Source: Candidatus Latescibacterota bacterium (lineage in GTDB: Bacteria; Latescibacterota; UBA2968; UBA8231). Taken from it: a stretch of DNA of 64,000 nucleotides. The position numbers and the translations under genes are program-made. Positions within the stretch are counted from its first letter, which is position 1. Every line of letters starts with the position of its first letter. Shown piece after piece: positions 8,701 through 57,800 of this stretch. The DNA lies in NCBI GenBank assembly GCA_965203175.1, contig OZ241867.1:5248001-5312000 (forward strand). The letters are read 5' to 3'. The notes beneath the pieces were generated by a model that was not told the DNA's origin, searched no databases, and saw only the letters and a list, made by a program, of their open reading frames with translations.

Positions 8701-8724
8701 ATTCATTCCTACGAAAGGCATTCC

Positions 8725-13943: not shown

Positions 13944-13956
13944 AATGACCTTTTTC

Positions 13957-13977
13957 TTTAGTGCCACCGCAAAGCAA
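13957..13977 (-). pseudogene. Possible remnant of the cognate RelE/HigB-like (HI1419-like) killer gene
   Basis: Reads LLCGGTK directly upstream of the antidote; the killer family carries a conserved LLCGGDK near its C-terminus. Confidence 0.45.
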
Positions 13978-25101: not shown

Positions 25102-25432
25102 ACACTTTGACTCCAGACTGAGTAAAGGATTGAGGGGAAGGATGCCGGTCGAGGTCGATTACGTCCACCTCTCTGCCGGTAACATCCTCCAGCGCTTTCA
25201 TTACTTCGAGCACAACAGGTGAGCAGCCTCCCACAGCCACGTCAATGTCGGACGACTCCCGCCAAGAATCGGGCGACCGCAGCGAGCCCACGATGTACGC
25301 GGCCTCAATTCCGAGAGGTTCCCGTAGCTCCAACAGGGTACAACGAACACAGTCGAGCAACTCGGCTTGCTCTGCCGCTAGCCGCTGGCGTCGCGCTCTT
25401 ATGGCCTCGTCGAGGATGCTGGTGTCGAACAT
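25094..25432 (-). CDS. Minimal nucleotidyltransferase (MNT) antitoxin
   Basis: YIVGSL...SSDIDVAV...REVDVIDL Pol-beta NTase motifs. Confidence 0.85.
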   Translation of the reverse strand: MFDTSILDEAIRARRQRLAAEQAELLDCVRCTLLELREPLGIEAAYIVGSLRSPDSWRESSDIDVAVGGCSPVVLEVMKALEDVTGREVDVIDLDRHPSPQSFTQSGVKVYG

Positions 25433-31550: not shown

Positions 31551-33095
31551 CGCCGCTACCCGATCCTTCACCAGTAGCGTCGGCTGCTGCCAGTGAGCAT
31601 CGTCGCGCGTGGGATGATCGCAGTTGTAGTGGACGCCGCGGCTTTCCAAGCGCTGCCGCGCCGAGCGGGCAATGAGCTGGGCTACAGTCGCCAAGCTGCG
31701 TAGCTGGACTAGCTCAGCGTCGAGCCGGTGCTCGCTGTGCAAAGCTTCAATTTCTCGCGCCATCCGCTCCGTCTCTTCACAAGCCCGCTGCAAGCCGCAG
31801 TCGCTGCGCACGATCCCCACTTCGTCCCACATCAAGCGCCGCAGCAACTCCCGCCGCTCCTCCAGCGCATCAGGTGCAACAGCATCGCCCGCATGCGTCA
31901 TCTCGAACCGGCCCTCAGTCACGGGCGCAACTGTCCTGGCATGCTCGACAGCGCGCCGCGCAAAAACCAACCCCTCCAACAGCGAATTACTCGCCAGCCG
32001 ATTGGCTCCCTGAAACCCACTCATCGCCACCTCGCCAGCCGCGTATAGGCCCTCAATATCCGTCTGACCGTGCACGCCAGTCCACACCCCACCGCAGCTA
32101 TAGTGAGCCGCCGGCACCACCGGGATCGGCATCTCAGTCATGTCCACGCCCATTCCCAAACAATGCCGATAGATATTGGGGAATCGGCGGCGGGTCTGGT
32201 CGGCATCTTGGCCGGTGACGTCCAAATAGACACACTCGGCACCGCTTTCCTGCATCTGCGCGACAATGGCCCGCGACACCACATCGCGCGTCTGCAATGG
32301 GTCGGTAAACGCCTCGCCGCGCCCGTCGATTAGCACGGCACCAAACCCACGCAAAGCCTCGGTAATCAGGAACGAGGGCCGCCCCGGATCGTAGAGCATG
32401 GTCGGGTGGAACTGCATAAACTCCATGTTGCTCACCCTAGCTCCGGCCCGCCAAGCCATGGCAACCCCATCGCCGGAGGCCACGCGCGGATTGGTCGTAT
32501 GTAAAAAGACCTGCCCGCAACCACCCGTGGCCAGCAGCGTAACCGGCGCCACAGCGGCGATGGGATCGGCTCGCTGCGAGTCCAATACCCAAGCCCCGTG
32601 ACAGCGCCGTTGCTCGTCCACCATTAAGTCTATCGCCAAATGGTGATCGTACAAGGTCACCTGCGGCAGCGCTTGCACAGCCGCAACCAAGGCGCGCGTC
32701 ACCTCGCGGCCGGTCATATCGTCCGCATGCACCACCCGCGCATGGGCGTGTCCACCTTCGCGCCCCAATGCCAACACCCCGGGCCGCGCTTCGTTGAACT
32801 GCGCGCCAATCGCCAACAGCTCGTCCACCACCTCTGGCCCTTCAGCTACCACCCCTTCGACAACCGCGCGGTCGCACAGGCCCGCGCCCGCCGCAACCGT
32901 GTCCTGCGCGTGGCTCGCAACCGAGTCGGCTCCATCCATGGCCGCGGCAATCCCGCCCTGCGCGTATTGCGTGTTAGACTCGCGCCGCTCGCGCTTGGTC
33001 ACCACGGCCACGGACCCGTGCTGAGCGGCCTTGAGGGCAAAGAACAAACCGGCAATCCCGCTGCCGAGAACTAAATAATCCGCCTCGATTTTCAT
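31536..33095 (-). CDS. nadB: L-aspartate oxidase
   Basis: GSGIAGL, SNTQYAQGGIAA, REGGH, QFHPT, LITEALRG, PAAHYSCGG, GANRLASNSLLE; ATG 33095 overlaps the stop of the upstream gene. Confidence 0.95.
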   Translation of the reverse strand: MKIEADYLVLGSGIAGLFFALKAAQHGSVAVVTKRERRESNTQYAQGGIAAAMDGADSVASHAQDTVAAGAGLCDRAVVEGVVAEGPEVVDELLAIGAQFNEARPGVLALGREGGHAHARVVHADDMTGREVTRALVAAVQALPQVTLYDHHLAIDLMVDEQRRCHGAWVLDSQRADPIAAVAPVTLLATGGCGQVFLHTTNPRVASGDGVAMAWRAGARVSNMEFMQFHPTMLYDPGRPSFLITEALRGFGAVLIDGRGEAFTDPLQTRDVVSRAIVAQMQESGAECVYLDVTGQDADQTRRRFPNIYRHCLGMGVDMTEMPIPVVPAAHYSCGGVWTGVHGQTDIEGLYAAGEVAMSGFQGANRLASNSLLEGLVFARRAVEHARTVAPVTEGRFEMTHAGDAVAPDALEERRELLRRLMWDEVGIVRSDCGLQRACEETERMAREIEALHSEHRLDAELVQLRSLATVAQLIARSARQRLESRGVHYNCDHPTRDDAHWQQPTLLVKDRVAASKVH

Positions 33096-37693: not shown

Positions 37694-38536
37694 GTGAGAA
37701 CCCTTAAATACACCATTCTGCTCGCCAATGCCCTGCTCATCGCCTGCGGCGACGATGACAATCCCATTGACGGCAGTAGAGATCATACTGGTAATACAGA
37801 GAGCCGTGGACGAGGACAACTCGCCGCGGCTCAAGAGCACGATGGCGGGGGCAATGCGATTGGGAATGCAGAGAGCCATTGGCGGGGGATCGAGATCCGT
37901 CCCGAAAGTAGATGTTCTCCCTATGATCGCAGCGACTATCGCTACCCACAGTCCGTCGAGCTTGTCATTATCAAAGAGCTCGGCGGCATATACAGCCCGT
38001 ACACGGGACGCTGTTTTTCTAGCCGGTGGGAGACGGACATCGAGCACATAGTCGCGCTTTCCGAAGCGCACGACAGTGGGCTATGCGAGCCTGTCCCCAA
38101 TATCATGCAGCTGCGTCAAACCTTTGCTTCCGATCCGCTCAACCTGACGCTTGCAAGCCCCGAATTAAACCGCGGCCGCAAGCGACACTACGATGGTGCC
38201 GAATGGATGCCGCCCATGAATAGATGCTGGTTTGCCCAGCGCATCGTCGAAGTGCGCAGCGAGTATGGCCTCACTATTGACCGCAGAGAAGCGGAAGCAC
38301 TGGAGCGCATACTTTCGACGTGCTCTTCTGTCGAGATGGAGTTTATTGATTGTGCAGCGGAGGTCTCGGAAGTTAGACTGGCAAGCTCAGATGCGCTTAG
38401 CGAGTATGACGACGACGGCAATGGGCGCATCACTTGCGCGGAGGCGCGACGGCATGGCATTGCTCCGGTGCCGCGCAACCATCCGGCCTATCCATTTATG
38501 AACGACGGGGATGGCGACGGCGTCGTATGCGAATGA
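37694..38536 (+). CDS. Lipoprotein with HNH/DUF1524-like nuclease domain and C-terminal Excalibur Ca-binding domain
   Basis: Lipobox LIAC; TDIEHIVALSEAHDSG, FASDPLNLTLASPELNRGRK, AEWMP...CWF; ITCAEARRHGIAPV...HPAY..MNDGDGDGVVCE. Confidence 0.85.
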   Translation: MRTLKYTILLANALLIACGDDDNPIDGSRDHTGNTESRGRGQLAAAQEHDGGGNAIGNAESHWRGIEIRPESRCSPYDRSDYRYPQSVELVIIKELGGIYSPYTGRCFSSRWETDIEHIVALSEAHDSGLCEPVPNIMQLRQTFASDPLNLTLASPELNRGRKRHYDGAEWMPPMNRCWFAQRIVEVRSEYGLTIDRREAEALERILSTCSSVEMEFIDCAAEVSEVRLASSDALSEYDDDGNGRITCAEARRHGIAPVPRNHPAYPFMNDGDGDGVVCE

Positions 38537-38618
38537 ACCATCATCCGGCTCAAATCGTCGCTGGCCGTATTCTATCGGAGTCTGTACTGTTATTTTATCT
38601 GAGACTTGGAGGATCGCG

Positions 38619-38855
38619 ATGAAGGAAATAGGTATTTCCGAATTCAAGGCGAAGTGCATCGACGAATTGAAGAAGGTGCAACGGACGGGGGAACCGCTCC
38701 TCGTGACCTTGAACAAACGGCCCATAGCCACGGTCAACCCATACCGCGAAGAAAGCCGCTCAAACAGAGAGCTAGGCAAACTGCGCGGCCGGATGACTAT
38801 CCACGGCGACATCGTTCATACTGATTTCGGGGATGAGTGGGAGATGAATTCGTGA
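38619..38855 (+). CDS. vapB: Phd/YefM family antitoxin (VapB)
   Basis: MKEIGISEFKAKC...VQRTGEPLLVT..KRPIA; RBS GGAGG. Confidence 0.85.
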   Translation: MKEIGISEFKAKCIDELKKVQRTGEPLLVTLNKRPIATVNPYREESRSNRELGKLRGRMTIHGDIVHTDFGDEWEMNS

Positions 38856-39253
38856 GGATCCTACTCGATACGCATGTATGGATCTGGTCACAGGAATCGC
38901 CGGAACAACTCGGTCCAGACGCACGGAGTACCGTCGCCGACGAGGCCAATGCACTTCTCGTCTCAACTGCATCATCGCTGGAAATCGCACGCTTAGTGTG
39001 GGGAGGCCGGCTGACCCTAGCAGGCCGACTTGAGACTTGGATATCCGAATCGCTCGATGCACTGCTCGCCGAAACCGTTCCCCTCACTCACGAGATCGCC
39101 ATCGCGGCCTATAATCTACCCGGGGAATTTCACCGCGACCCTGCCGACCGAATGCTAGTCGCTACCGCCGTCGTGCACGACCTGACCTTTATGACCGCTG
39201 ACGAGCGCATCCTAGCTTATTCCCATCTACTCTCGCTCGACGCACGCAAATGA
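38852..39253 (+). CDS. vapC: PIN-domain toxin VapC
   Basis: ILLDTHVWIW, STASSLEI, HRDPADRMLVATA, TADERI; GTG start overlaps the antitoxin stop. Confidence 0.9.
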   Translation: MRILLDTHVWIWSQESPEQLGPDARSTVADEANALLVSTASSLEIARLVWGGRLTLAGRLETWISESLDALLAETVPLTHEIAIAAYNLPGEFHRDPADRMLVATAVVHDLTFMTADERILAYSHLLSLDARK

Positions 39254-40863
39254 ACGAAAATCGGCGAGTTAAAGACGTTGCAGGGTACCTGAAGGAAGTC
39301 TCAAAGATAAAAGCTGAATGGACCAACTCTACTTTGGTATTTCGAGGTCAGGAAAACGAGGAGTGGCCTTTGGCGTCTTCAGCGGAGCGCCGTCTGAAGA
39401 AGAGTCTCCCAAGCCAAAACAGAATACCCGACCGATTATTCATTGAATACCACGAAGACCTGCTGAAGAAATGCAAGCAGAAGAACTACGACCAGCGCGA
39501 GCGGAAGCAATTAGACGACTTAGAGCTACTCGCTGATCTTCAGCATCACGGAGCTGCAACCTGCATAGACTTTACGCGCAATGCCCTCGTCGCTTTGTGG
39601 TTCGCCTGTGAAAAGTCAGAGAAGAATGGGAAGGTATTTGTCGTCAATAGAGCTGCTGAGAAGACCTTTTCGGAAATAGCGCACGAGATAAAAAAACCAA
39701 TAAGCTACATCCTCCAGTTCAAAGCCCGTGAGACCAATAATGATCAGGAGATCGGACGTCCGACACCGGAAACTTTAGCGGTATCCCCAAACAAATCAAC
39801 CTTCTGGCACTGGACACCGGCCCACCTGAACGAACGCATAACGGCGCAGCACTCTCTATTCCTCTTCGGCCTCCCTTCATCGGAAGACCTGAATTCGGAA
39901 GAGATACTCATCGAATCAGGAAATAAAAAACTGATACGAAGAGAGTTGGAAGAACTACACGACATCCATGAAGAATCTCTCTTCCCGGATTTCGTGGGCT
40001 TTGCCCATACTCAGCGTTATAATGCTCCCTACTCCACTCCTGATGCCAAGGAATATTTCCGCCGCGGAGTTGAGGCAGGTCAACGGGGGCAATATTCGGA
40101 AGCCATCGAAAAATTTACCAAGGCAATTCGACTAGACCCGGATGATCCCGAAAAGTATCATCTTCGTGGCCGTGCTTACCTTGACAGAGGCGATTATGAC
40201 CACGCGATCCAAGATTTGACCAATGCGATTTCACGAGATTTTAAGTTCGCCGACACATATTTCCTTCGCGGCCATGCTTACCTCAAAAAAAACAAACATG
40301 AAGACGCGATTAAAGACTTTGCCAACGCGATTCGACTTCAACCGGATGCCTTTAACTATATTATGCGCAGCTATGCCTACTACGGAAAGGGAAAGTACTG
40401 CCACGCCATCCAAGATGCTACAAAGGCGATTCAGCTTAAACCGGATTTCGCTGAAGCATATTATGCACGTGGCCTTGCTTATTTCAGCAAGGAAAAGTAT
40501 GACCTAACGATTATAAACACTACCGAAGCGATTCAACTTAAATCGGATTATGCCGAAGCCTATGGTATTCGTGGTCTTTCCTATAGAAGAAAAGACGAAT
40601 ATGAAAACGCCATCCACAATTTTACCAAGACGATTGAACTGAATCCCGAATGGGAAAACACCTATTACTTTCGAGGCGTTACCCTGTTAGCCTTGGAAAG
40701 ATGGCAGGAAGCCAAATTAGATCTGACCACCGCTAAGAATATGGGATTGAACATCGTCTCTTCCTTTCGACGGGAGTACAACAGCGTCGCCGACTTTGAG
40801 CAAGAAACCGGAATTACCTTGCCAGAAGACATAGCGGCAATGCTGACAGAAAGCGAAAATTGA
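39250..40863 (+). CDS. FRG-domain protein with C-terminal TPR array
   Basis: VFRGQ...WPLASS, LQHHGAAT.IDFTRNALVALWFAC, NERITAQHSLF, LFPD; about 7-8 TPRs (A...RG..Y...YD.AI.D...AI.L.P). Confidence 0.88.
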   Translation: MNENRRVKDVAGYLKEVSKIKAEWTNSTLVFRGQENEEWPLASSAERRLKKSLPSQNRIPDRLFIEYHEDLLKKCKQKNYDQRERKQLDDLELLADLQHHGAATCIDFTRNALVALWFACEKSEKNGKVFVVNRAAEKTFSEIAHEIKKPISYILQFKARETNNDQEIGRPTPETLAVSPNKSTFWHWTPAHLNERITAQHSLFLFGLPSSEDLNSEEILIESGNKKLIRRELEELHDIHEESLFPDFVGFAHTQRYNAPYSTPDAKEYFRRGVEAGQRGQYSEAIEKFTKAIRLDPDDPEKYHLRGRAYLDRGDYDHAIQDLTNAISRDFKFADTYFLRGHAYLKKNKHEDAIKDFANAIRLQPDAFNYIMRSYAYYGKGKYCHAIQDATKAIQLKPDFAEAYYARGLAYFSKEKYDLTIINTTEAIQLKSDYAEAYGIRGLSYRRKDEYENAIHNFTKTIELNPEWENTYYFRGVTLLALERWQEAKLDLTTAKNMGLNIVSSFRREYNSVADFEQETGITLPEDIAAMLTESEN

Positions 40864-45546: not shown

Positions 45547-45777
45547 GTGAATCTCGTGCGAAAACCTGTTGCCATCGTTGATCTTTTTTCTGGCCCTGGC
45601 GGTCTTAGTGAGGGCTTTTCTGCCTTCACTGATGATGCACAGCATCGCCCGTACTCGATCCGGGTTTCGATCGAAAAGGATCGATCAGCTCACGAAACTC
45701 TGCTTCTGAGGAACTTCCTGCACAAATTCAACTCCGGATTTCCAGCGCATGGTCCCCATACCGAGGGGAGTAGGAAT
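45547..45777 (+). pseudogene. N-terminal fragment of a C5 cytosine DNA methyltransferase, in frame with the Fic gene
   Basis: [15 protein letters not shown] (motif I) and [12 protein letters not shown]; no downstream PCQ or ENV motifs. Confidence 0.75.
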
Positions 45778-46833
45778 ATGAGTAACGGCTTTAGACCAGT
45801 CTTCACGACTACTCATCCGATCACCGGTGGGCTGACACACATCGAACGCGCTCGGGGATTCTTGGAAGCGGCTATGCTGTCGGAGCAGTGGGTGCGTGAG
45901 ATGGGCCAGCGCGCCTTGCTTCTGGAAGCGCACCACACCACTCACATTGAGGGAACACGCCTCACACTGGACCAAGCCCGGCGGCTGCTAGAGGGAAACC
46001 CTGTACCAGATGCCGACCCGGAAGATGCAAAGGAGTTGCTCAACTATCGGAAAGCATTCGACTTCGTATCCGAATATATTTCGAGCGGCGGTCCTATCAC
46101 GGAGGGGTTAATTCGAGAAATCCACAGATGTCTGGTCGAAGGTGTCCGCGGCGGTGCCGCAGGTCCCGGTGAGTATCGGAAGACCCAGAACTATGTGGTG
46201 AACTCCCTCACCGAAGAGATAATTTATAAGCCGCCGCCAGCTTACGATGTGCCGACCATGATGGCGGAATTAGTAGACTGGCTCCACCGGGAACAGGAGA
46301 TCCATCCCGTGCTGGTGAGCGGAATTGCGCAGTTCCAACTCGTGCATATCCATCCGTTCTTGGACGGCAATGGTCGCACCTCCCGTCTGCTTTCCACCCT
46401 GTGCCTCTATCGAGCCGGATATGACTTCAAACGCCTGTTCACGATCAGCGAATACTATGACCGGAACCGGACCGCCTTCTACCAAGCGATTCAAAGTGTC
46501 CGCGAAAGCGGCATGGACCTGACCGCCTGGCTGGAGTACTTCGTAGAAGGATTGGCCACTCAGCTTGCCGAGGTCAGGAGACGCGGAGAACGTGCCATCC
46601 GACGGGATGTCCTCATCAAGGAGCGAGGGCTGTCCGATCGTCAGGCCAAGGCGCTTAGCCACATTGTCGAGCACGGCAGTTTAACCATTCAGGACTTTGA
46701 GAACCTTTGTCCCGACGTCAACCGCCGGTCACTACAGAGAGACATTCGAGCCATGATTGAACAAGGGATCATGAAAGAAAAAGCAACGAGTCCTACGGAC
46801 CCCAATAAACGATACGTGTTCAATAATGAATAG
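45778..46833 (+). CDS. Fic family protein with C-terminal winged HTH
   Basis: [20 protein letters not shown] (canonical Fic motif), [12 protein letters not shown]; own RBS-like GGGGAGTAGGA before ATG 45778. Confidence 0.9.
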
Positions 46834-46958
46834 CCTAGTTCGGAAGCTATGACAAGCTGTGACATGGAGCTATGACAAAATGAAACGCAACCGAGATCTG
46901 TCGTCGCCTGTGCCATGCCGAGGAGATCGACTGACCACAGGTTCCGATCTAGCCAAGA

Positions 46959-47015
46959 TCACCAAAGGCGGCGAACGCCATAACTATCGAAGAGCGGTTC
47001 AATTGAAACGATTAC
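46959..47015 (-). pseudogene. 3' remnant of a vapC toxin
   Basis: Reads VIVSIEPLFDSYGVRRLW*, matching the typical VapC C-terminus (..FD.YGV.R.W*), overlapping the end of the antitoxin. Confidence 0.7.
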
Positions 47016-47241
47016 CCTCCCAAGCTCCCAATTCCTCTTCTGGCAGCGGATCAAAGAAGCTCTCGTCGAGTTTTATCTGGCCCTTCATGGAGCCGAATTG
47101 CCGCTTGCCCTGCTTTCGGACACGCACCATCCGGGCCACCGGCGTACCGCTACGGGCGATGACGACTTCCTCCCCCGCCTCGACCTTTGCAAGCAAACGC
47201 GATAGGTTGGTCTTCGCTTCATGGACATTCACTTTTATCAT
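46999..47241 (-). CDS. Phd/YefM family antitoxin (orphan)
   Basis: VNVHEAKTNLSRLLAKVEAGEEVVIARSGTPVARMV...FFDPLPEEELGAWEG; RBS AAGGAG; TTAGCTAA palindrome at 47264-47271. Confidence 0.9.
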   Translation of the reverse strand: MIKVNVHEAKTNLSRLLAKVEAGEEVVIARSGTPVARMVRVRKQGKRQFGSMKGQIKLDESFFDPLPEEELGAWEGNRFN

Positions 47242-47340
47242 CGCCAACTCCTTGAGAATAAAGTTAGCTAAGAATATAGTTTAGCAAGCCTTCAAAGCCT
47301 TGCTAACGGCGCACGTGCCCGCTTGGCAAACGCACGCCTC

Positions 47341-50300
47341 TCAACGCACCAACGCCAAGCGCCCCATCGCAACAAACGAATCCGCCACCAAGCGATAGAA
47401 GTAAATCCCCGAGGCCACCACGTGCCCATCTTGGTCGCGCCCATCCCAGACGAATCGATAGCGGCCAGCCACTAACGGCCCGTCCACAAGGTGGCGCACA
47501 GGCCGTCCTAACGCATCGTAGAGCACCAACGCGACCGACGCCGCCTGCGGCAGATCAAACGGCAGCGCGACCTCGGCGTTGAAGGGGTTGGGATAGGCCG
47601 GATGCAGTGCAAAGTCGGTCGGCAGAGCCACCGCCTTAGACACCCCTTCCTCCGTGAGAAACGGCACCCACGCCACCGCGCCTTCAATCTGCGCTGCAAT
47701 GGTTGCGCTGTCGGCTGTGCTCCAGTAGTTGCCTTGAGCGTTCAATTCCTCGGCGCTCAAATTCTCAATGGCCGTGGTGTTGTTGGCAAAGGTGTTGCCG
47801 CTAATCGCCGTCGGCATCCGCGGCCCTTCCACCCGGATGGCCACAGTATTGTCTGCAAAGCGGTTGCCGACGATGTGCGGTGCAGAGTCCACGGATTGAA
47901 TGGCCGGCGTCCCGCGCACAAACTCGCTGGTGCGAATCTCCAGCGACTCTACGCCGGTTAGCTCCAAACCCCGGCCCCCGACAAACGAGCCCATCTCAAT
48001 CGCCCCTCTCGTCCCCTGCCCCAAGCGCAGACCCGCGGCAACATGCGCCCTGAACGTCGAGTTCCATATCTCCACCAGCGATCCGGAGATTTCGGCACCA
48101 GCGCGCAAGTTGCGCTCGACCAGCACCTGCGCAAGGACCAAGCGCGCCGCGCTCCTAGCGCGCAGACCATCGCCTTGGTTGGCGACGAGGCGGCTGTTGT
48201 GCAATTCCACCTCCCCCAGCCACTCTTCCAAATCCATGCCGTGCCCGGTATTTTGCTCAATCTGCGACTCCCACATCTCAATGCGCTGGCCGCGGCCGCC
48301 GATGGCCCGCACTCCAGTCCGCGGGTCGTCCGGGTCAAGGCGGCCATTGTCGATTACGGCGACGCGGATGGCCTCTAAGGATGCGTTATTGAGCAGGATC
48401 CCCTCTTGGCCATTGCCCTCAATGGTGACGTTCCGCAGCGCGAGTTGCCCGCTGCCAGCGAGAAGTATGGCTGGTCCGGAGATAGTGGTAAATTCGCTCC
48501 GATCTACCTGTACTTGGCCGTTGAGTGCTAGCCGCAGGCCGTTGCCTCCGCTTTCGCGCACCGCAGAGTCGGCGATGTGCAAGCTCGTCTCCGCGTCGAT
48601 CTCGCCGATGAAGGCAAAAGCCGTGCGCGTTAGCTCGGCGTGCTGCACCTCGACTTGAGCTCCCGGCAGCACGCGAATGCCATACCACAAGCCGTCATTG
48701 TCCGGACCGGGCTCGGTAGTTAGCTCTGCCCGCTGTCCGGCCATCCCCTCAATCGTCAACGCGCCTTCCACGATCAACTCGGCGAAGTCCGGGGACACGC
48801 CGCGCCGGCTGAGATCAAAGCGGGGAAAAGACACGCTGCTCGGGCCGATGTGCAGTTCGGACCCGGCCGGCACCACCAAATCCGCGTACACGGCCTGCTC
48901 GTCCAGCCACTGCGTCCGCCCCGGAGGCAGGCGGAAGCCGACAATCCCGCGATGGGCGTGTTCAATGGCGATGGCCACTGGGTCAATTGCTTGGCCGTCG
49001 AGCAGGTAAATACCCGACCAATCCAAGGGGCCAGTGCGCGGCGCACCCGACGAGAAAGACACATCTTCCCCGATTTTGAGATCGCCATAGACGATCAACT
49101 CGCTGCGGTCTGGATCAAACCCCGTGCCCTGTGCATCGCCGCGGGCAAAGCGGATCTCCGCACCGGCGTCAATAGTCAGCGTTGCCCCCGGTGCCACGAC
49201 CACGTCCCCGTCCAAATCCACCCGGCCCGTCCACGTCGCGTCGCCGACAATGTGGCCGGGGCGTTGCTGCCGCACCACATCGACGACCATCGCGGTACCT
49301 TGCGGGCGGATATTGTCTATAGCCACGCCCAACGGCAAGTTCCGCGCAAAGCCCGTGTGGCCGCTGAAGGCCGGATTCGTGTCCCAAGCGAAGCGGCGGA
49401 AGCGCACGCCGTCAAAAGGGTCGGTCGCGTCGCCTTTGTTGCCGTTGTGCATCGAGGAGTACGCCTCGTCCCGCGCCCAAAAGTCGAGATGATCCCGTCC
49501 TTCCACTACATCGGGGTCGCCGTTGGGCGCAAAAAGCCCATCGGCGCAGACCAAATCGACCTGTTTGTGGCGTTCCTCGTCGTTGTCCGCCTGCTCGTCT
49601 ATGTGCCAGATGAGCAGGCCGTCTTGTGGGATATTGCGGTTGTAGTACGAGCCGTCGGCGCGCCGGTGCTCCAGCAGGAAGTACTCGTCTTGGGTTAGGG
49701 GAATTTTGTACGCCTTCCGGTCGCTGAAGATCTCCCCGATCTCTAGCCCTGAGACGCTCCCTGTCACTTCCACCACCTCGATCCAACCGAGGGTAGCTAG
49801 CGACCAAGCCGAAAAGGCGTTGGGGCCATCTTCTACGCCCCAACCAAGCGTCCCCCAACCCATGATCCCCCAATTGCCAATACCTGCGGAATCGTTCTCT
49901 GGGTCCAACTCGGCCACGGTCAACGCCGTCTGATCGAAGAGATCGGGCAACCCCAACACGTGCGCGAACTCGTGACACATCGTCGAAGCCGTGATGCTAA
50001 AGGTGTGGCCCCGCTGCGTGGTGCCGCCGAAACCTGTAAAGCGACTTCGCACCCGCACAAAGCCGCCATTGGCCGCTGAATCGCCGCTGATGTAATCGGC
50101 GTTTAATCCCAAGCTGGCGATGCCAGTGGCCGCGCCAACAAAAAAATCGCGGGGCGAGGTATGCAGGTTGATAAAGACGATATCGACGTACCCGTCGTCG
50201 TCGCCGGAGTTGGGCACCCCATCGGGGCCGTCGTTGTCAAAGAGACCGAAATCGACGTCTGCATCTGCCGCGGTGAGGACCTCCAAGTTGAAGCGCCCGA

Positions 50301-50652
50301 ATTGGCCCAGGCTTCCTGGGATCTCAGCCAGATAGGTCTCGGCATTGTCGCGAGAGCGATAGCGCCGCGGCAACACTTGGCCATCGACGTGGAGCCGTCC
50401 GGCCGACATCTCGCGGTAGAAGTGAGCAAAACTACCGGGCAACTCGTCGTCGAAAAGGTCATTCGCCCACGAAGGGGCCGAATCGCCGGCACTCTCGTCC
50501 GCAAACTGCGCGAAGATAACCAACGCACTCAGGTGCTCCGGCGTCTGCACAACCTGCTGCGCCGACGACTCCAACGCCGCGCAGGCGAACTCGGCCGCTA
50601 GGGCTTGGTATGGGAAGACGAGAAGGAGGAAAAGGAACAACTTACACGCCAT
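47341..50652 (-). CDS. M6 family metalloprotease with beta-helix repeats and FlgD-Ig/T9SS-CTD-like domain (paralog of 33092..35761)
   Basis: Signal peptide from ATG 50652; HEFAHVLGLPDLF; NDGPDGVPNSGDDDGYVD; AYPNPFN...WDGRDQDGHVVASGIYFYRL. Confidence 0.88.
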   Translation of the reverse strand: MACKLFLFLLLVFPYQALAAEFACAALESSAQQVVQTPEHLSALVIFAQFADESAGDSAPSWANDLFDDELPGSFAHFYREMSAGRLHVDGQVLPRRYRSRDNAETYLAEIPGSLGQFGRFNLEVLTAADADVDFGLFDNDGPDGVPNSGDDDGYVDIVFINLHTSPRDFFVGAATGIASLGLNADYISGDSAANGGFVRVRSRFTGFGGTTQRGHTFSITASTMCHEFAHVLGLPDLFDQTALTVAELDPENDSAGIGNWGIMGWGTLGWGVEDGPNAFSAWSLATLGWIEVVEVTGSVSGLEIGEIFSDRKAYKIPLTQDEYFLLEHRRADGSYYNRNIPQDGLLIWHIDEQADNDEERHKQVDLVCADGLFAPNGDPDVVEGRDHLDFWARDEAYSSMHNGNKGDATDPFDGVRFRRFAWDTNPAFSGHTGFARNLPLGVAIDNIRPQGTAMVVDVVRQQRPGHIVGDATWTGRVDLDGDVVVAPGATLTIDAGAEIRFARGDAQGTGFDPDRSELIVYGDLKIGEDVSFSSGAPRTGPLDWSGIYLLDGQAIDPVAIAIEHAHRGIVGFRLPPGRTQWLDEQAVYADLVVPAGSELHIGPSSVSFPRFDLSRRGVSPDFAELIVEGALTIEGMAGQRAELTTEPGPDNDGLWYGIRVLPGAQVEVQHAELTRTAFAFIGEIDAETSLHIADSAVRESGGNGLRLALNGQVQVDRSEFTTISGPAILLAGSGQLALRNVTIEGNGQEGILLNNASLEAIRVAVIDNGRLDPDDPRTGVRAIGGRGQRIEMWESQIEQNTGHGMDLEEWLGEVELHNSRLVANQGDGLRARSAARLVLAQVLVERNLRAGAEISGSLVEIWNSTFRAHVAAGLRLGQGTRGAIEMGSFVGGRGLELTGVESLEIRTSEFVRGTPAIQSVDSAPHIVGNRFADNTVAIRVEGPRMPTAISGNTFANNTTAIENLSAEELNAQGNYWSTADSATIAAQIEGAVAWVPFLTEEGVSKAVALPTDFALHPAYPNPFNAEVALPFDLPQAASVALVLYDALGRPVRHLVDGPLVAGRYRFVWDGRDQDGHVVASGIYFYRLVADSFVAMGRLALVR

Positions 50653-50671: not shown

Positions 50672-52099
50672 TCAAAACTTATCGAGCGGCATCTGCCGAC
50701 ACTCGCGGATGAAGAGTTCGGCTTCGCGGCCATAGGTGAGGAAAGGGTCGTCGAGGCTGAGGAACTTATCGTCGCCCACGCAAATGGAGTCCCAATCAAT
50801 TTGGTAGCGCGTCTTCTGATCGGTCAGCGCTCTCATCACGCGGGAGCGAGCGCAGGCGCGGGTATCGGCTGGGGGATGCGTGATGGCTTGGTTGATCTGC
50901 TCGTCGCTGACGACTCGCTTGACCATCCCGCGCTCGTACAAATCGAAATAGAGGCTCCGCGCCGCGTTGAGATTGTGGTATTCCAGATCCAAACTTTGGA
51001 TCCAAGTATCCTGCCAGTCCAACCCCTCTTCCCGCATGAAGTACTCCAACAGCCACTTCTTAGCCACCCAATCGACGCGATCGACCAAGCACCCAGGATC
51101 GTGTTCTAAGGCGTCGATGACAAAGCGCCACTCGTCCAACACCCAGTCGCCCTCTTCGTCCCGACCGCGCAGATAGCGCTCGGCCAAATCGAGATACGCG
51201 CGCTGTATCTCCGTCGCCGTGGTGTAGCGGCCGTCCTCTAGCTGCACTTCCCAGCGATAGGTCATGTCGCGCGAAATGTCGCGGATGGCCTGCACGGGAT
51301 CGAGGAGCTTGATATCGTCGCAGATCACGCGCTCTTGCTCTTCTAAAAGCTGCAACACCAAGGCCGTGGTCCCCACCTTCAGGGCCGTGGCGTACTCCAT
51401 CATGTTCGAGTCGCCCACCAACAGGTGCAGGCGGCGGTACAATCCCCAGTCGGCCAGCGGCTCGTCGCGCGTGTTGATGATTGCGCGACTGAACTGGATC
51501 CACTGGTAGATCTCGGTGACGATGTGGTCGGCCCGCTGCGAGAGTTGGAATTCAACGCCTTCGTCCTCGGCACTGCCGTACTCGAAAATATCCGTGTGGC
51601 AACCGACTCGGCCGGCACCGGCGAATATCTGGCGGGTGACGAAAAAGGGCAGCATGGTCGGCAGCAGCACTTGCGAAAACGGCACTTCCCGCCGCACGAG
51701 GTAGTTCTCGTGGCAACCAAAAGTAGCCCCTGTGTAGTGGTCGATATTGTTCTTGAAAAAGGCCGCGCTATCGGCCAAGCCAAGCTGATCTAGCGCGCGC
51801 TGCACCAACCGCTCGCCAGCTCGGTCGGCAGCCACCAAATCAAAAAGCCCGGTGCACTCCGGAGTGGCGTACTCGACGTGGCCCATGTCGATGTACACTC
51901 GACCGCCGTTGAAGAGAAAGCCGCCATTGCCGGGCGGCTCGTCGCGGCCCCGATAGTGCATATCGACAATGCCCAAGTGCTCGCGGTAGAACACACAGTC
52001 TTTGGCCTTTATCGACACAAAATCGGGACTCAAAAAGGGATCCGAAGCCGGCGGTAGACAACCGTATTCGGTTTCCAGTCCGTAGATGCGACCTTCCAT
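50672..52099 (-). CDS. pafA: Pup/UBact-protein ligase (PafA family)
   Basis: RIYGLETEYG, FLFNGGRVYIDMGHVEYATPEC, KNNID...GCHENY, SQRADH, RAIINTRDEPLAD...YRRLHLLVGDSN, DLEYH. Confidence 0.92.
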   Translation of the reverse strand: MEGRIYGLETEYGCLPPASDPFLSPDFVSIKAKDCVFYREHLGIVDMHYRGRDEPPGNGGFLFNGGRVYIDMGHVEYATPECTGLFDLVAADRAGERLVQRALDQLGLADSAAFFKNNIDHYTGATFGCHENYLVRREVPFSQVLLPTMLPFFVTRQIFAGAGRVGCHTDIFEYGSAEDEGVEFQLSQRADHIVTEIYQWIQFSRAIINTRDEPLADWGLYRRLHLLVGDSNMMEYATALKVGTTALVLQLLEEQERVICDDIKLLDPVQAIRDISRDMTYRWEVQLEDGRYTTATEIQRAYLDLAERYLRGRDEEGDWVLDEWRFVIDALEHDPGCLVDRVDWVAKKWLLEYFMREEGLDWQDTWIQSLDLEYHNLNAARSLYFDLYERGMVKRVVSDEQINQAITHPPADTRACARSRVMRALTDQKTRYQIDWDSICVGDDKFLSLDDPFLTYGREAELFIRECRQMPLDKF

Positions 52100-52100
52100 A

Positions 52101-52868
52101 CTAAGCCTCGACGTAGGAAGCGAGTGGCTCGGCTAGTTGTTCCGCAGTGAGCAGGCGGAACTTCGACTTGGCGGCGCGGTCGCGGTCGAGCACCGCAGCC
52201 TCGACTGTCAGCCCTTGCAAACCGCCCTTTAGAAAATCGCGCACAGCCTCCGAGCTAGGCACCTCTCCAGCTCCATCGCGGGCGTCGAGGGTCAACCGGC
52301 CCAATCCCCACACCTCCAACGCCGCGCTCAAGGCTTGGTCGAGAGGAAGCTCTGGACTAGTCTCTTGCAATTGTGCTGTCATGGCCTGTGCGCTCTCTGT
52401 GTTGCCGCTGATGGCCGCCACCCCACCACTTTGGGCAAAAGACCCATCGGCGTCAATAGTAAAAAAGGCGTCGCCGCCGCCATCCGGGTCTAGCTCGGCC
52501 ATCATCACGCGGGCGACAAAGGGCGAGCGAAACAGCTCGTCGAAGGCCGCCTTCATCAGCGGGCCGATGCCAAAGCTGACCAATCGCTGCAAGGTCACGT
52601 CGTTGGCTGATAGGTTGAACCCTTCGAGATGGGCGATATCGATGACGGCTTTGCGCAACTTCTCGATGTCAGCCGGGTGCCCCACGGCCGCAAAGGCGAT
52701 CTCGTCGTACACCTCAAAGAGCTTGCGCGGGCCTGGAGTAGCCGTCAGCAGCAGTACCCCGTCGGCGTACGCCGTACCCACCACCGGACTGCCGCTCGCG
52801 AGTTGGTCTTCCACATACTCGCGGCGGTTGTTGATGGCCTCGACCCAGCGATAAGGTTCTTCTAACAT
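52101..52868 (-). CDS. prcA: 20S proteasome alpha subunit (bacterial type)
   Basis: GSPVVG..YADGVLL...RKLFEVYDEIAFAAVG...DIEKLR, EAAVLDR...KFR; position between prcB and pafA. Confidence 0.88.
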   Translation of the reverse strand: MLEEPYRWVEAINNRREYVEDQLASGSPVVGTAYADGVLLLTATPGPRKLFEVYDEIAFAAVGHPADIEKLRKAVIDIAHLEGFNLSANDVTLQRLVSFGIGPLMKAAFDELFRSPFVARVMMAELDPDGGGDAFFTIDADGSFAQSGGVAAISGNTESAQAMTAQLQETSPELPLDQALSAALEVWGLGRLTLDARDGAGEVPSSEAVRDFLKGGLQGLTVEAAVLDRDRAAKSKFRLLTAEQLAEPLASYVEA

Positions 52869-52873
52869 GCGCC

Positions 52874-53632
52874 TCAAGCCCTTTGGTAGAGCGCAGCCAA
52901 ATCCGCTTCGGGCACAGTGCTCAAACCCTCGGCCGTCACCTGCACGACCTGGGGAAAGATGTGCGCGGCCTCGCGGAAGCCGCCAGTAGCCGTGTCGTAT
53001 TCAGCGGCTGTCTCTAGCATCTTGAGCAGCAGCTCGACCGCCTGCTCTCCGGCCATCTCCCGCAGCGGCTGCGGCCCCCAGCGATTTTGGTAGTACAGCG
53101 CGCCGCGCACAATGTGTGCACCCGAACCGGTGGCGCAGAAATCCACGCACTCGAACTCGGCCCCCAAGAGGTCGTAAAAGAAAATTTTACCCTCCGCAGC
53201 CTCGTGGTCAAAGGCCGCGAAGATCGGCACCACCGCGCCAATCCCCTGCATGGCCAGCGGCAAGTTCTGGCGCAACAGCCGCGACAAAGTCCGCACCTTG
53301 CCGTCCAAACTCAGCCCTTGTAGCTGGCTGCGGCGATAGTACTGCACCGACATTTCCAGCATCCGCGCAATGTCCCACGCCACCGCCGGCGAACCGGCAA
53401 TGGCCATGACTGCTTCGTCGTCAATTATCAGCACTTTGTCGGCGCGGTCGTACACCACCGAGTTGCCCATGGTAGCGCGGCGGTCACCGGCCACCACCAC
53501 CCCGTCGGCGCAACGCACCGCTACAATCGTGGTGCCCTCGACCGGCTGCAAGGACGCTTCCGCAGCAGCGACCGGGGCGGCGGGCAAAAGCCCCCGCTCC
53601 TTGAGCAAGTCGAGGAAGTCGCAGCTTTCCAT
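52874..53632 (-). CDS. prcB: 20S proteasome beta subunit (bacterial type)
   Basis: Propeptide ending EG|TTIVA (catalytic Thr1), GDRRATMG, ADKV, LSLDGK, ATGSG, DTATGG. Confidence 0.93.
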   Translation of the reverse strand: MESCDFLDLLKERGLLPAAPVAAAEASLQPVEGTTIVAVRCADGVVVAGDRRATMGNSVVYDRADKVLIIDDEAVMAIAGSPAVAWDIARMLEMSVQYYRRSQLQGLSLDGKVRTLSRLLRQNLPLAMQGIGAVVPIFAAFDHEAAEGKIFFYDLLGAEFECVDFCATGSGAHIVRGALYYQNRWGPQPLREMAGEQAVELLLKMLETAAEYDTATGGFREAAHIFPQVVQVTAEGLSTVPEADLAALYQRA

Positions 53633-53638
53633 CGGCCG

Positions 53639-53830
53639 CTACTGTCCCGTGCGCTGGCGGTAGCGACGGGCCTGATTCGGATCTACGCGGCGCATCCGCT
53701 TGAGGATATCGTCCGTGCTGGGGCGCTCGACTCGCGGTCGGCGCGGGCCGGTATCTGGCCCGTCGTCGTTGTCGTCGATCGGCTTGGTCGGCCGGGGCGC
53801 GCGCTCCCGGTAGGAAATAAAATCGCTCAT
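53639..53830 (-). CDS. ubact: UBact-type prokaryotic ubiquitin-like tag (63 aa)
   Basis: Disordered, charged N-terminus; C-terminal ILKRMRRVDPNQARRYRQRTGQ matches the UBact R[T/S]G[E/Q] end; lies between dop and prcB. Confidence 0.88.
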   Translation of the reverse strand: MSDFISYRERAPRPTKPIDDNDDGPDTGPRRPRVERPSTDDILKRMRRVDPNQARRYRQRTGQ

Positions 53831-55371
53831 GGTGCCACCTCCGGTTTCGGTTTTCTACCCAGTCTGGCGAGCAAATCCTCGACGCTCGCAGCCGCGTCTA
53901 AGGCTTCGTTATAATAAGCCGCTGTCTCCCGGCTGACACAAGCCTTGAGGTCGATGACCTCACAGCGGCCGTCGAGTTCCAGCTCAATGCTATCCCAATT
54001 GAGCGAGCGCACCGCCGTGGCAAACTTCTGCAACATCTTGCCGCGAAAATAGGCCCGCGTGTCCCCGGGCGGCTCGACCAACGCCCGACACACCGCCTCC
54101 TCGGAGACGACGCGCTCTACTTGACCGGCGGCTTCAAGCGTCGGGTATAGCCCCTCAGCCGGGTCGATGTTGTGGTATTCGAGGTCTTGGCTTTGCAGCC
54201 AAGCGCGGTCCTCAGGCCGTTCCCAATCGAGTCTCTCGGACTCGGCAAACGCATCCAAAAGCCACTTTTTAGTCACCCAATCGAGGCGTCCAATTAGCTC
54301 TTGCGGATCGCGCGCGAGGGAGTCCAACACGTCGCGCCAAGCCGCGAGAACCCAATCTGTCTCCTCGTCGCGGCCCTGAAAAGCTCGCGTCGCTGCCGCC
54401 ATGATGGCCGTCTGGATTTCCAGCGCCGAACTCGACCCTCCCCCGGACAAGGGCACTGGCCACTCACGGGACTCGTCGCGGGAAATGGTCTTGAGCGCAC
54501 CGATGGGATCGGCCAATGCAAACGAAGGCAACGCACCAGCCTCTAGCAGGTCGAGTACCAAGGAAGCCGTGCCAACCTTGAGCGCGGTGGTGTATTCGCA
54601 CATGTTGGCGTCGCCGATGATCAGGTGCAGGCGGCGGTAGTGCGCTGGATCGGCGTGTGGCTCGTCGCGGGTGTTGACCAGCGGGCGGCGGTGCATGGTA
54701 TCGACGCTGGCGATGACCTCGAAAAAGTCCGCGCGCTGGCTTAGTTGGTAGGTGGCGGGCCGCGCCCGGGCGTCTTGTTCGACGCCGACTTTGCCGGCCC
54801 CGGCAAAAATTTGGCGCGTCACCACAAAGGGCAGCAGCCCGTTGATCACTTGTTGGAAGGGAATGTCGCGGCTGAGCAGGAAGTTCTCGTGGCAGCCGTA
54901 GCTGTGCCCCTCGAAGTCGGTGTTGTTTTTGTACAAACGCACTACGCCCCGACCGCGGTCTTCGGTGCGCTGGCGCGCGCACTGGAAGAGAATCCGCTCT
55001 CCGGCGCGATCAACAGCTACCAAATCGCGGAGACTATAGCATTCTGGGGTGGAAAATTCCGGGTGGGTGTGGTCGTTGTACAGGCGGGCACCATTGTGGA
55101 CGATCAGGTCGCTTTTCAAGTCCGCTAGCTGGATCGGGCGCTGGCGATCCTTCTGCAAGTGGACGGTCTCGTCCTTGTCGTTGAGGAGCTCGGTGACCTC
55201 AAAGCCGCGCATGTCGAGCCGCGGATTTTCGAGTGCGTAATTCCACAGAGCGACAAAATCTTGGCGCACATAGCAGCGGATCAATTCCATGGACTCTACC
55301 ACCACGTCCATGGACTCATCCTCATCAACCTGGATGCCGTACTCGGTTTCTAGCCCGCAGAGCCGCTGCAT
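53827..55371 (-). CDS. dop: Deamidase/depupylase Dop (PafA2) family
   Basis: GLETEYGI, WNYALENPRLDMRGF (Dop loop region), NGARLYNDHTHPEFSTPEC, KNNTDFEGHSYGCHENF, QRADFFE, NTRDEPHAD, TRAYFRG. Confidence 0.92.
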   Translation of the reverse strand: MQRLCGLETEYGIQVDEDESMDVVVESMELIRCYVRQDFVALWNYALENPRLDMRGFEVTELLNDKDETVHLQKDRQRPIQLADLKSDLIVHNGARLYNDHTHPEFSTPECYSLRDLVAVDRAGERILFQCARQRTEDRGRGVVRLYKNNTDFEGHSYGCHENFLLSRDIPFQQVINGLLPFVVTRQIFAGAGKVGVEQDARARPATYQLSQRADFFEVIASVDTMHRRPLVNTRDEPHADPAHYRRLHLIIGDANMCEYTTALKVGTASLVLDLLEAGALPSFALADPIGALKTISRDESREWPVPLSGGGSSSALEIQTAIMAAATRAFQGRDEETDWVLAAWRDVLDSLARDPQELIGRLDWVTKKWLLDAFAESERLDWERPEDRAWLQSQDLEYHNIDPAEGLYPTLEAAGQVERVVSEEAVCRALVEPPGDTRAYFRGKMLQKFATAVRSLNWDSIELELDGRCEVIDLKACVSRETAAYYNEALDAAASVEDLLARLGRKPKPEVAP

Positions 55372-55379
55372 GAGCTGGG

Positions 55380-57074
55380 TCAGATCACTTGGCCGATGCG
55401 CTTTTCCGGTGTCTTTTCCGGCTGAGGTCTAACGGGTATCACCCTCACCACGTTCTCCGGCTCGTAGTCGAGCAGCTTGAGCCAGTCCTCGACGCTGTCC
55501 GAAGGTGGGAACACCTCGTTTTCGCGGTATTCAGCCCGCGTCGCCTGCCGCAAGTCCTCGGCGCGGATCCCGCCTTCGGGGTCGCCCTCGGCAATGGCGC
55601 GCTTGATCGCCATCTCCTTGGCCCGCGATACGACCGAGGCGATGATGGCTCCGGAAATCAGGTCGCCGCGATAGAGTACTTCTTGGCGGCCGCTGCGCAG
55701 CGACACCTCCAAGAAGCGGGCCTCTTCGCCTTTGGAAAACAACTCGTCGAGGCCCTCCTGTATCAGGGCCTCGCGCGCAGCCGCTTCGCCGCCGTACTGC
55801 TCTACCTCGGCGCGATCAATCGGCAGTTCGGGCTTGAGGTAAATCCCCAAAATGTCACCAGCCGCTTCGTAGTTGGGGCGCGCGACCTTGATTTTGCGGT
55901 CGATGCGGCCGGGCCGGAGCACGGCTGGGTCAATCAGATCGTGGCGGTTGGAGGCCAAAATCAGCACCACGTCCTGCAGCGACTCAATGCCGTCCATCTC
56001 AGTGCAAAACATCGGCACGACCGTGTTGGAGATGTTGTGGCTGCGCATCGAGCGCCGAGTGCCCAAGATCGACTCGGCTTCGTCGATAAAGACAAAGGGC
56101 AAATAGCCCTCCTTGCGCTTTTGGCGCGCCTGGGCAAAGACCTCGCGCACCATGCGCTCGGTCTCGCCGAGCCACATGTTGAGGATTTCCGGCCCCTTGA
56201 TGTGCATGAAGTACTCTTCCAACTCCAGGCCCTCGACCTCGCGCATGTGCTGCACCAAGTTGTACGCCGTGGCCTTGCCGATGAGAGTCTTGCCGCAGCC
56301 CGGGGGGCCGTAGAGCAGGAAGCCCTTGGGCGTCGAATACTCGAAGCGCTCGAAGAGCTGGGGGTGCAACGCAGGCAGTTCAATGGTGTCGCGGATGGCT
56401 TCGATCGCTTCGGCTTGGCCACCGATGCTCTCCCAAGGAGTTGGAGGAACGTCCTCGATGAAGTACTCCTTGCTCTCGGCGGATTGCAAAACTTCCAGCG
56501 CAACCTTGTAGGCCGGATCCATCCGCACCTCGTCGCCGATTTGCAAATCCACGTCGGCCAATTCCGCAGCGCGCTCGACGACCACCTCTTGGGTCCCGTG
56601 CGCTTGGGCAATCCGCAACCGCCCCTCTGGAAGCAGATCGCCGACCTTGGCCACCGGTCCAGAGGGGCTGTGCCCCAAATTGCCAACGACCGCATAGGCT
56701 TCGTTTACCAGCACCCGGCAGCCGACCTTGAGCTGGGACACATCGACGCGCGGGTCGATATTGGCATAGTACTCAGCACTGCCGACGAAGACCGTGGCAA
56801 TCCCCTCGCTCGGCAGGCCGAGGAAAATCCCGACGCGATTGGCCGGTGCCGTCACCTTCTCTAGGGCGGCTTCCATCTCCACAAGAGCCCGACGCGCCTC
56901 CTGAAAGGAAATCTCCCGCTCCATGAGCTGGCGCCGAAGGCGGTACAGCAGAGGCCGAGCTGGGTCGCGGTCTGGGGCTAGCGCGAGCAACTGATCGACC
57001 AAGCGCAATGGCTCAGCAACCTGCTCCTCTGGCTCTTGGTCCTTGTCGTATTCGTGCGATTCCCTGCGGTTCAT
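55380..57074 (-). CDS. arc: Proteasome-associated AAA+ ATPase (ARC/Mpa)
   Basis: N-terminal coiled coil and OB region; GPPGCGKT, IKGPEILNMWLGETER, FIDEAES, IDPAVLRPGRID. Confidence 0.93.
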   Translation of the reverse strand: MNRRESHEYDKDQEPEEQVAEPLRLVDQLLALAPDRDPARPLLYRLRRQLMEREISFQEARRALVEMEAALEKVTAPANRVGIFLGLPSEGIATVFVGSAEYYANIDPRVDVSQLKVGCRVLVNEAYAVVGNLGHSPSGPVAKVGDLLPEGRLRIAQAHGTQEVVVERAAELADVDLQIGDEVRMDPAYKVALEVLQSAESKEYFIEDVPPTPWESIGGQAEAIEAIRDTIELPALHPQLFERFEYSTPKGFLLYGPPGCGKTLIGKATAYNLVQHMREVEGLELEEYFMHIKGPEILNMWLGETERMVREVFAQARQKRKEGYLPFVFIDEAESILGTRRSMRSHNISNTVVPMFCTEMDGIESLQDVVLILASNRHDLIDPAVLRPGRIDRKIKVARPNYEAAGDILGIYLKPELPIDRAEVEQYGGEAAAREALIQEGLDELFSKGEEARFLEVSLRSGRQEVLYRGDLISGAIIASVVSRAKEMAIKRAIAEGDPEGGIRAEDLRQATRAEYRENEVFPPSDSVEDWLKLLDYEPENVVRVIPVRPQPEKTPEKRIGQVI

Positions 57075-57086
57075 GGCATCCTCCCA

Positions 57087-57800
57087 CTAGTAGATCACGT
57101 CGCCGAGACGCCTGTAGCGCACTCGACTGGGCAGGCGCCAGATAAAGCTGGCCACCACCGCGGGCAGCGAACTCAAGCCCCTGTAATAAGGTCCGCGGGT
57201 GTCGGGCTCCCACGACCAATAGATGTTCATGGCCTTGCCCTTGATCAACCGCTTGGGCACAGCGCGAAAGTAGCGGCTGTCCGAGCTGTTGTCGCGATTG
57301 TCACCCATCATAAAGAAATAGCCTTCGGGCACAATATACGGGCCAAAATTGTCGCGGGGATTGAGCTCCCTCGGATAGTATCTAGGGTCGGTGTACTTGG
57401 TCAGCGGCGGATCTTGCATTGGCTCGCCATCAACGTAGAGTACCTTGTTGATGATGTGGACGCGCTGCCCTCCGACGGCAACACAGCGCTTGATCAAGTC
57501 GCGCCCCTCGTCCTGCGGAGAGCGGAAAATCACGATGTCACCCGGCTGCGGTTCCTTGAGTGCAGGCAGACGGAAGAGGGAAATGCTCGTCAGAGGCACA
57601 TCGACTGGAACGCCGTAGATAAACTTGTTGGCCAACAGATAATCACCCACCAAAAGCGTATCTTCCATCGAACTGGAAGGGATGTAAAAGGCCTGCACCA
57701 CACCGGTGCGAATGACCAAAAACAAGCCTACGACGGTCAGTATAGAATACAGGTATTGGCCAAGTTCGGACTTTTGCTTGGCGTGCTTCATCCGCAGCAT
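57087..57800 (-). CDS. lepB: Signal peptidase I
   Basis: IPSSSMEDTLLVGD, LIKRCVA, FMMGDNRDNSSDSRY. Confidence 0.95.
   Translation of the reverse strand: MLRMKHAKQKSELGQYLYSILTVVGLFLVIRTGVVQAFYIPSSSMEDTLLVGDYLLANKFIYGVPVDVPLTSISLFRLPALKEPQPGDIVIFRSPQDEGRDLIKRCVAVGGQRVHIINKVLYVDGEPMQDPPLTKYTDPRYYPRELNPRDNFGPYIVPEGYFFMMGDNRDNSSDSRYFRAVPKRLIKGKAMNIYWSWEPDTRGPYYRGLSSLPAVVASFIWRLPSRVRYRRLGDVIY

Follow-up and report, generated by a model that had tools for sequence, protein, structure and literature searches.

A window of 64,000 nucleotides, positions 5248001-5312000 inside a single 6.58-Mb Latescibacterota contig, was examined in the present study with a focus on the minus-strand interval 50672-57074. 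This interval is filled exactly by six open reading frames (ORFs), namely arc, dop, ubact, prcB, prcA and a pafA-like gene (Table 1), which very probably form a complete UBact-proteasome operon on this Latescibacterota chromosome and correspond to the Pup-proteasome system of actinobacteria. Neighbouring genes show an operon-like spacing, being separated by 8 nt (arc/dop), 6 nt (ubact/prcB) and 1 nt (prcA/pafA) or overlapping by 4 nt (dop/ubact and prcB/prcA); the stop of dop and the start of ubact share an ATGA, with a GGAGG upstream. The ORF coordinates, together with Pfam and NCBIfam matches, bear out a first-pass annotation of this DNA, which had described six tightly packed or overlapping genes in the actinobacterial Pup-proteasome order. 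Every frame of the six-gene locus is open, the catalytic residues are intact and the guanine plus cytosine (GC) content resembles that of the surroundings. The host genome, which comprises the one 6.58-Mb contig, encodes one UBact, two Pup_ligase and two proteasome-fold genes, all within this locus. A Pfam Proteasome search found no HslV-type gene in the genome (estimated completeness 93%), the two locus genes being the only matches. The host had been described as a probable diderm bacterium of a candidate phylum, which agrees with the nearest relatives being Latescibacterota metagenome-assembled genomes (MAGs); the assignment of Latescibacterota to the FCB group by NCBI and the type IX secretion system (T9SS) sorting domains carried by genes flanking the locus fit a diderm.

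Table 1 Positions of the six ORFs in the window and the matches on which each assignment rests
Feature	Position	Strand	Length (amino acids)	Basis
arc/mpa-like proteasomal AAA ATPase	55380-57074	-	564	Pfam OB_N, OB_C and AAA; NCBIfam pup_AAA
dop-like deamidase / de-tagging enzyme	53827-55371	-	514	Pfam Pup_ligase; NCBIfam Dop
ubact tag	53639-53830	-	63	PF20513 and NF033388, above cut-offs
prcB, 20S beta subunit	52874-53632	-	252	Pfam Proteasome; NCBIfam 20S_bact_beta
prcA, 20S alpha subunit	52101-52877	-	258	Pfam Proteasome; NCBIfam 20S_bact_alpha
pafA-side paralog, presumed UBact ligase	50672-52099	-	475	Pfam Pup_ligase; tree; diagnostic residues

Among the six products, UBact is the only one to pass a curated cut-off. 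The 63-amino-acid (aa) ORF scored 72.7 bits against Pfam PF20513 (cut-off 27.8) and 74.9 bits against NCBIfam NF033388 (cut-off 35). No match to Pfam Pup was obtained for it at E≤10, and a UBact profile of 47 sequences matched none of the chains in the PDB at E≤10, a database that does include Pup-containing entries. These profile searches uphold the earlier identification of the tag as UBact and not canonical Pup; its C-terminus is also as previously described, the ORF ending in MRRVDPNQARRYRQRTGQ (last residues RTGQ), which differs from the GG[E/Q] of Pup. The middle of the protein is acidic with Gly and Pro and the tail is basic, the last 24 residues having a net charge of +4 to +6 across the 47 UBact sequences. 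In 75 relatives the tag ends with RTGQ (45) or RTGE (30). The UBact C-terminal motif reported by Lehmann et al. in 2017 (BBRC) is said to be R-[T/S]-G-[E/Q]. Residues Arg45-Gly62 of the tail are nearly invariant across the 75 ubact copies, with amino acids almost fixed while third codon positions vary at 17 of the 18 codons 45-62, and the ubact frame is therefore under strong purifying selection. At least five switches between Gln and Glu at the terminal position are needed on a Dop tree of 73 rows, whose loci were all found via a Dop search and hence carry no information on whether Glu-ending lineages retain Dop. By analogy with the Pup system, the terminal Gln may be deamidated by Dop, and the alternation of Gln and Glu among relatives fits this proposal. 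A passage of PMC3511204 describes the same terminal dimorphism for Pup (PupQ/PupE). One related locus, L085 (G108:C69), encodes at 2111-2589 a normal UBact (65 aa, RTGE end) followed, just before prcB, by a second UBact-like ORF with the tail RYRQRDGGVN, which is without a G-Q/E end.

The 514-aa protein is, judged by its sequence, clearly Dop-like. It scored 528.7 bits against Pfam Pup_ligase and 450.2 bits against NCBIfam Dop (TIGR03688), 84 bits above its PafA score of 366.1 and under the Dop equivalog cut-off of 492.3. Searches of the PDB gave 363-399 bits for Dop chains over the full length, versus 252 bits for PafA. A Dop loop is present at about residues 40-86, including W43 and ENPxxDMRGFEV, and aligns to that of Acidothermus Dop (Trp, RGFEV); the loop is conserved, and the catalytic Asp is followed by His. 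What the Dop loop does is described in a section of PMC9556782.

The ATPase and both proteasome subunits likewise match the expected families. ARC comprises a heptad-like N-terminal stretch, the Pfam domains Prot_ATP_ID_OB_N and Prot_ATP_ID_OB_C and one AAA module. It scored 452 bits against NCBIfam pup_AAA (TIGR03689, cut-off 504.75), and its best PDB matches are Mpa/ARC chains (331-343 bits over residues 56-545). PrcB reached 105 bits with Pfam Proteasome and 171.3 bits with 20S_bact_beta (of the pair TIGR03690/TIGR03691, cut-off 191.9). The corresponding values for PrcA, which starts at either TTG 52877 or ATG 52868, were 33.5 bits and, with 20S_bact_alpha, 84.7 bits (cut-off 139.05). The first-pass annotation had noted an intact catalytic Thr1 propeptide junction in PrcB, and this was confirmed: the junction QPVEG/TTIVAV places Gly before Thr-Thr, defining a 33-residue propeptide with Thr1 at residue 34, and the residues counted from Thr1 as Asp17 (residue 50) and Lys33 (residue 66) are in place. 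Among PrcB relatives the junction is G/TT in 61 of 72, and Asp and Lys are both kept in 60 of these 61. In the other 11 relatives the junction is A/TT, with Ala before Thr1 (PTDA/TTIL).

The 475-aa protein is the second Pup_ligase family member of the locus (Pfam, 476.8 bits), and we read it as the putative ligase because of its placement in a tree, its PafA-like residues and elimination. A search of 1.84 billion representatives returned 5761 matches at E≤0.001, of which the best 150 of the 5761 were used as the paralog sample. NCBIfam labels were obtained for 90 of 121 near-full-length matches, with 17 above the Dop cut-off and seven above the PafA cut-off. The position of the clan containing the 475-aa protein had a support of 11 in a quick 100-row tree. 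A more careful tree (IQ-TREE, LG+C20+F+G4 with posterior mean site frequencies (PMSF), no outgroup, unrooted), comprising 66 of the 100 quick-tree rows after 34 had been dropped for speed, is split into 32 and 34 rows with a support of 97/97. The 32-row side includes the window Dop and all 11 Dop equivalogs present in this tree, and the 34-row side includes the 475-aa protein, all seven PafA equivalogs and eight PafA-leaning rows. This PafA/Dop phylogeny, an analysis that the first-pass annotation had proposed, groups the 514-aa protein with Dop and puts the 475-aa protein on the PafA side. There the latter belongs to a 12-row clan of its own (99/97), separate from a 19-row PafA group (86/96), and the unrooted tree is compatible both with a sister relationship of this clan to PafA and with a basal ligase-like lineage.

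Residues that distinguish the two enzymes were taken from Table 1 of Hecht et al. 2020 (PMC7947786). At the positions of that table, the 475-aa clan is PafA-like at 7, 11, 13, 14, 25, 33 and 46 and Dop-like at 15. PafA-like states of the clan include Phe61, Gly73, Ala78, Thr79, His192, Ser204 and Asp at position 46, and Pro80 is Dop-like. The clan is without the Dop loop, without the His that follows the catalytic Asp in Dop (the sequence being Asp71-Met-Gly); the 475-aa protein is also without the Glu and the acidic alpha-loop residues of Dop. Replacement of Pro75 by Leu, Ile or Val is unique to the clan. When the 475-aa protein was the query of a word-indexed homolog search, the 120 matches listed were all close relatives, which made this search unsuitable for tree building; public names appearing among them were 'proteasome accessory factor PafA2 family protein' and 'proteasome accessory factor A'.

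A complex of the 475-aa protein with UBact residues 27-63 was predicted in three runs, with controls. The median score of the three runs was 0.85 versus 0.17 for the best control, and among solved complexes 58 of 80 attain the mark used, compared with two of 110 mismatched pairs. Agreement between the runs extends to at least 96% of contacts, with a predicted local distance difference test (pLDDT) value of at least 69 for the partner. Contacts were found between UBact 45-63 and enzyme residues 11-15, 71-74, 120-130 and 350-390. The UBact tail is thus predicted to reach the catalytic Asp region of the enzyme, and the model supports binding.

A Dop scan yielded 79 related loci, labelled mostly as Latescibacterota MAGs, with a minority labelled Gemmatimonadota/Gemmatimonadaceae and a few designated 'bacterium' only; one of them (L034) carries the label Handelsmanbacteria. 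In 67 of the 79 the six genes are all present and identically ordered, and 11 of the 12 others end at a contig edge, leaving L075 as the only true departure. Relatives of the locus diverge down to about 60% identity with the order kept. Because so many loci share the order, nearly all exceptions are cut by contig ends, and the ubact tail is conserved despite variation at third positions, the locus is more than a product of chance. L075 (7530-13518) has arc-dop followed by unrelated genes (aminotransferase-like and others) and not by ubact-prcBA-pafA, which may represent a split locus or a misassembly. One close relative, L009, has a 400-aa ORF without a Pfam match (7581-8783) between dop and ubact, with about 1.9 kb of extra DNA.

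Of 151 sampled genomes of the phylum, 111 gave a UBact match and 114 a Pup_ligase match, and the two are distributed alike over the families. In family f1, UBact and Pup_ligase were detected in 57 and 60 of 63 genomes, respectively, and every sampled genome of families f2 (30/30), f3 (19/19), f4 (2/2) and f6 (2/2) had both. No UBact or Pup_ligase match was found in the 34 sampled genomes of nine families (f5 and f7-f14). Positive genomes have nearly always two Pup_ligase copies, and completeness is 75-86% in the three genomes where Pup_ligase but not UBact was found. In four families of the class to which the window belongs, the locus is present in nearly all genomes sampled.

The interpretation of the locus as a complete UBact-proteasome operon is supported by the six family memberships, the order and its conservation, the intact catalytic residues, selection on the tag, the split between Dop and PafA and the predicted placement of the tail in the enzyme groove. 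The operon is intact and probably active, and by analogy with the Pup system its mechanism may be outlined as follows, each step resting on homology. UBact would be made with a terminal Gln, which the Dop-like enzyme would convert to Glu. The 475-aa PafA-side enzyme would then use ATP to phosphorylate the terminal gamma-carboxylate and join the tag to lysines of target proteins. ARC would bind the tag and thread the conjugate into the PrcA/PrcB 20S particle, the beta subunit having processed itself at Gly33/Thr34. Dop could also take the tag off again.

Several observations weigh against this interpretation, some of which concern the 475-aa protein. It scored 369.0 bits against NCBIfam Dop and 366.6 bits against PafA (TIGR03686), a near tie in which the PafA equivalog cut-off of 551.3 was missed, and its PDB matches favour Dop chains (285-295 bits) over PafA (245-248 bits). 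An AlphaFold2 model of the protein (pLDDT 86.1, predicted template modelling score 0.89) superposes in Foldseek on Dop with a template modelling (TM) score of 0.85 and on PafA with 0.77-0.83, and the comparison was dropped as a discriminator of ligase and hydrolase, there being no separation of Dop from PafA. The alpha-loop in the model consists of a three-residue helix and a strand (pLDDT 69-79) and not of the long PafA helix. The alpha-loop Thr-Thr, conserved in both Dop and PafA, is replaced by Ile/Val and Gln/Arg with the Arg kept, a loss that, like the change at Pro75, is unique to the clan. These features would be accounted for if the 475-aa paralog were a second hydrolase or a regulator, in which case the Dop-like enzyme would conjugate the tag or the tag would stay unconjugated. 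We consider this improbable, as the tree excludes the protein from the Dop clan and groups it, at the 97/97 split, with the PafA side, and as it has neither the loop, the His after the catalytic Asp, the Glu nor the acidic alpha-loop residues of Dop and carries at least five PafA-specific residues. Tagging also requires a ligase, and no more than two members of the family are encoded in the genome. Moreover, the UBact tail is predicted at the active site of this enzyme. Part of that result may stem from the resemblance of the enzyme to those in the solved complexes of PafA and Dop with Pup, although no similarity of UBact itself to Pup is detectable.

Further reservations concern the locus as a whole. 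None of the five enzymes reaches its actinobacterial equivalog cut-off in NCBIfam, yet each best matches the expected Pup-system family. ARC ends in KRIGQVI and the GQYL motif is absent; in 74 full-length relatives the end is V-I or V-V (72) or I-V (two), and a penultimate Tyr was seen in none of the 74. According to a passage of PMC12288473, the GQYL end of the mycobacterial ATPase is required for gate opening, and since the ARC described here is without a penultimate Tyr, docking to the 20S particle probably uses a different end. In favour of the operon, RNA-library contigs that are 90-99% identical cover the six genes, with at least one contig bridging each of the five junctions. These contigs derive from relatives (four libraries belonging to three coded studies, the runs bearing the labels sponge or coral metagenome) and are no proof of transcription, of its strand or of one common transcript. 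No biochemistry was found in the open literature for any UBact system. A non-functional remnant or foreign DNA inserted recently, for example from actinobacteria or through a binning error, could be suspected from the patchy occurrence in the phylum, with nine families giving no match, and horizontal transfer of pupylation genes has been proposed in parts of PMC7947786 and PMC3511204. Either reading is very unlikely given that the window lies inside a single long contig with no composition break seen at the locus borders, that frames are open and catalytic residues intact, that frameshifts or catalytic losses were not seen in most relatives, that nearly all sampled genomes of four families retain the locus in an order conserved at about 60% identity, and that the tag is under purifying selection. 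The gene order, the enzyme families, the tag length and the terminal Gln or Glu would also suit an ordinary Pup-proteasome system with a divergent canonical Pup. This is the least probable of the alternatives, as neither Pfam Pup nor the Pup-containing PDB entries were matched even at E≤10, and the UBact tail is basic and ends with RTG[Q/E] and not GG[Q/E].

As a UBact-proteasome operon, the locus resembles the UBact loci of Lehmann et al. (2017) in having a tag family above the cut-offs, the R-T-G-Q/E end and the order arc-dop-ubact-prcB-prcA-pafA, and differs from them in host phylum. Those conjugation-proteasome loci were reportedly described in Gram-negative bacteria; Latescibacterota is not known to be among the phyla listed there, and 'Handelsmanbacteria' reportedly is. 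To our knowledge, no proteasome-linked tagging systems other than those with UBact have been predicted for diderms. The distinct PafA-side clan, the GQVI end of ARC, the repeated switching between Gln and Glu and the prevalence in the phylum are details added here, and represent modest new points.

With the actinobacterial Pup system the locus shares the six roles and their order, a Thr1 proteasome, a two-OB ATPase, a ligase/amidase pair of glutamine synthetase (GS) fold in which only one paralog has the Dop loop, and the Gln/Glu dimorphism of the tag. In contrast to Pup, the tag is basic and unrelated in sequence, and unlike their actinobacterial counterparts the five enzymes are all under the equivalog cut-offs. 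The PafA-side clan also departs from actinobacterial PafA in having I/V-Q/R for the alpha-loop Thr-Thr and Leu, Ile or Val for Pro75, and the ARC family ends with V-I, V-V or I-V where the mycobacterial ATPase has GQYL. Proteasome-less pupylation of the Corynebacterium type has Dop, the tag, PafA and ARC in common with the locus, which additionally has prcB and prcA; a degradative role is likely, judging from the gene content, because both subunit genes are present and intact. We tentatively propose, as a possibility that we hold to be somewhat less probable than its converse, that the UBact system is an ancient sister of the Pup system which co-evolved separately, and not a recent actinobacterial copy, with a third-lineage Dop/PafA ligase, a rebuilt alpha-loop, a tag of reversed charge and a Val-Ile 20S docking end. 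If this is true, the rules derived from mycobacteria on what distinguishes ligase from hydrolase, on how the tag is recognised and on how the gate is opened would not be directly transferable. The three contrasts with the Pup system (separate ligase clan, basic tag and GQVI docking end) provide hypotheses, and the locus is a clean and complete example from a lineage in which a nearly universal system offers many natural variants for reconstitution. It opens no new question. UBact is already represented by Pfam and NCBIfam models, the locus is common in its class of the phylum, and nothing can be tested with it that other UBact loci would not also allow. In the open literature no experimental UBact paper was found, UBact occurring there, in the text that could be searched, only as a passing mention (PMC11354881) or in reference-list entries, while other papers containing the word apply it, judging from their titles, to something different; judged by titles, no paper found there links Latescibacteria with a proteasome.

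The operon is flanked by two genes on the same strand. A signal peptidase I gene (lepB, 57087-57800, minus strand) lies 12 nt upstream of arc, and an M6-like metalloprotease with beta-helix and T9SS sorting domains (47341-50652, minus strand, likely start ATG 50652) lies 19 nt after pafA. Because both are on the strand of the operon, they may share a transcript with it. Both were considered as members of the system and rejected, being present beside the locus only in nearer relatives. A scan of the window for promoters and terminators yielded no excess over shuffled sequence by which a transcription unit could be delimited (six promoter-like sites versus a mean of 2.8 with a standard deviation of 2.2, and 12 terminator-like sites versus 10.5), and Rfam and tRNA scans of the window returned no matches. 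A second M6-like, beta-helix and FlgD_ig protein, a paralog of the one adjacent to pafA, is encoded at 33092-35761 (minus strand). Toxin-antitoxin or defence-like genes are scattered at 13638-13967, 24634-25432, 37694-40863 and 45547-47247, the types at these sites being an HI1420-type antidote, a HepT/nucleotidyltransferase pair, GmrSD_C with Excalibur, PIN, FRG with TPR, Fic and a Phd/YefM antitoxin. The stretch of the window at 38-42 kb has a lower GC content, 0.53.

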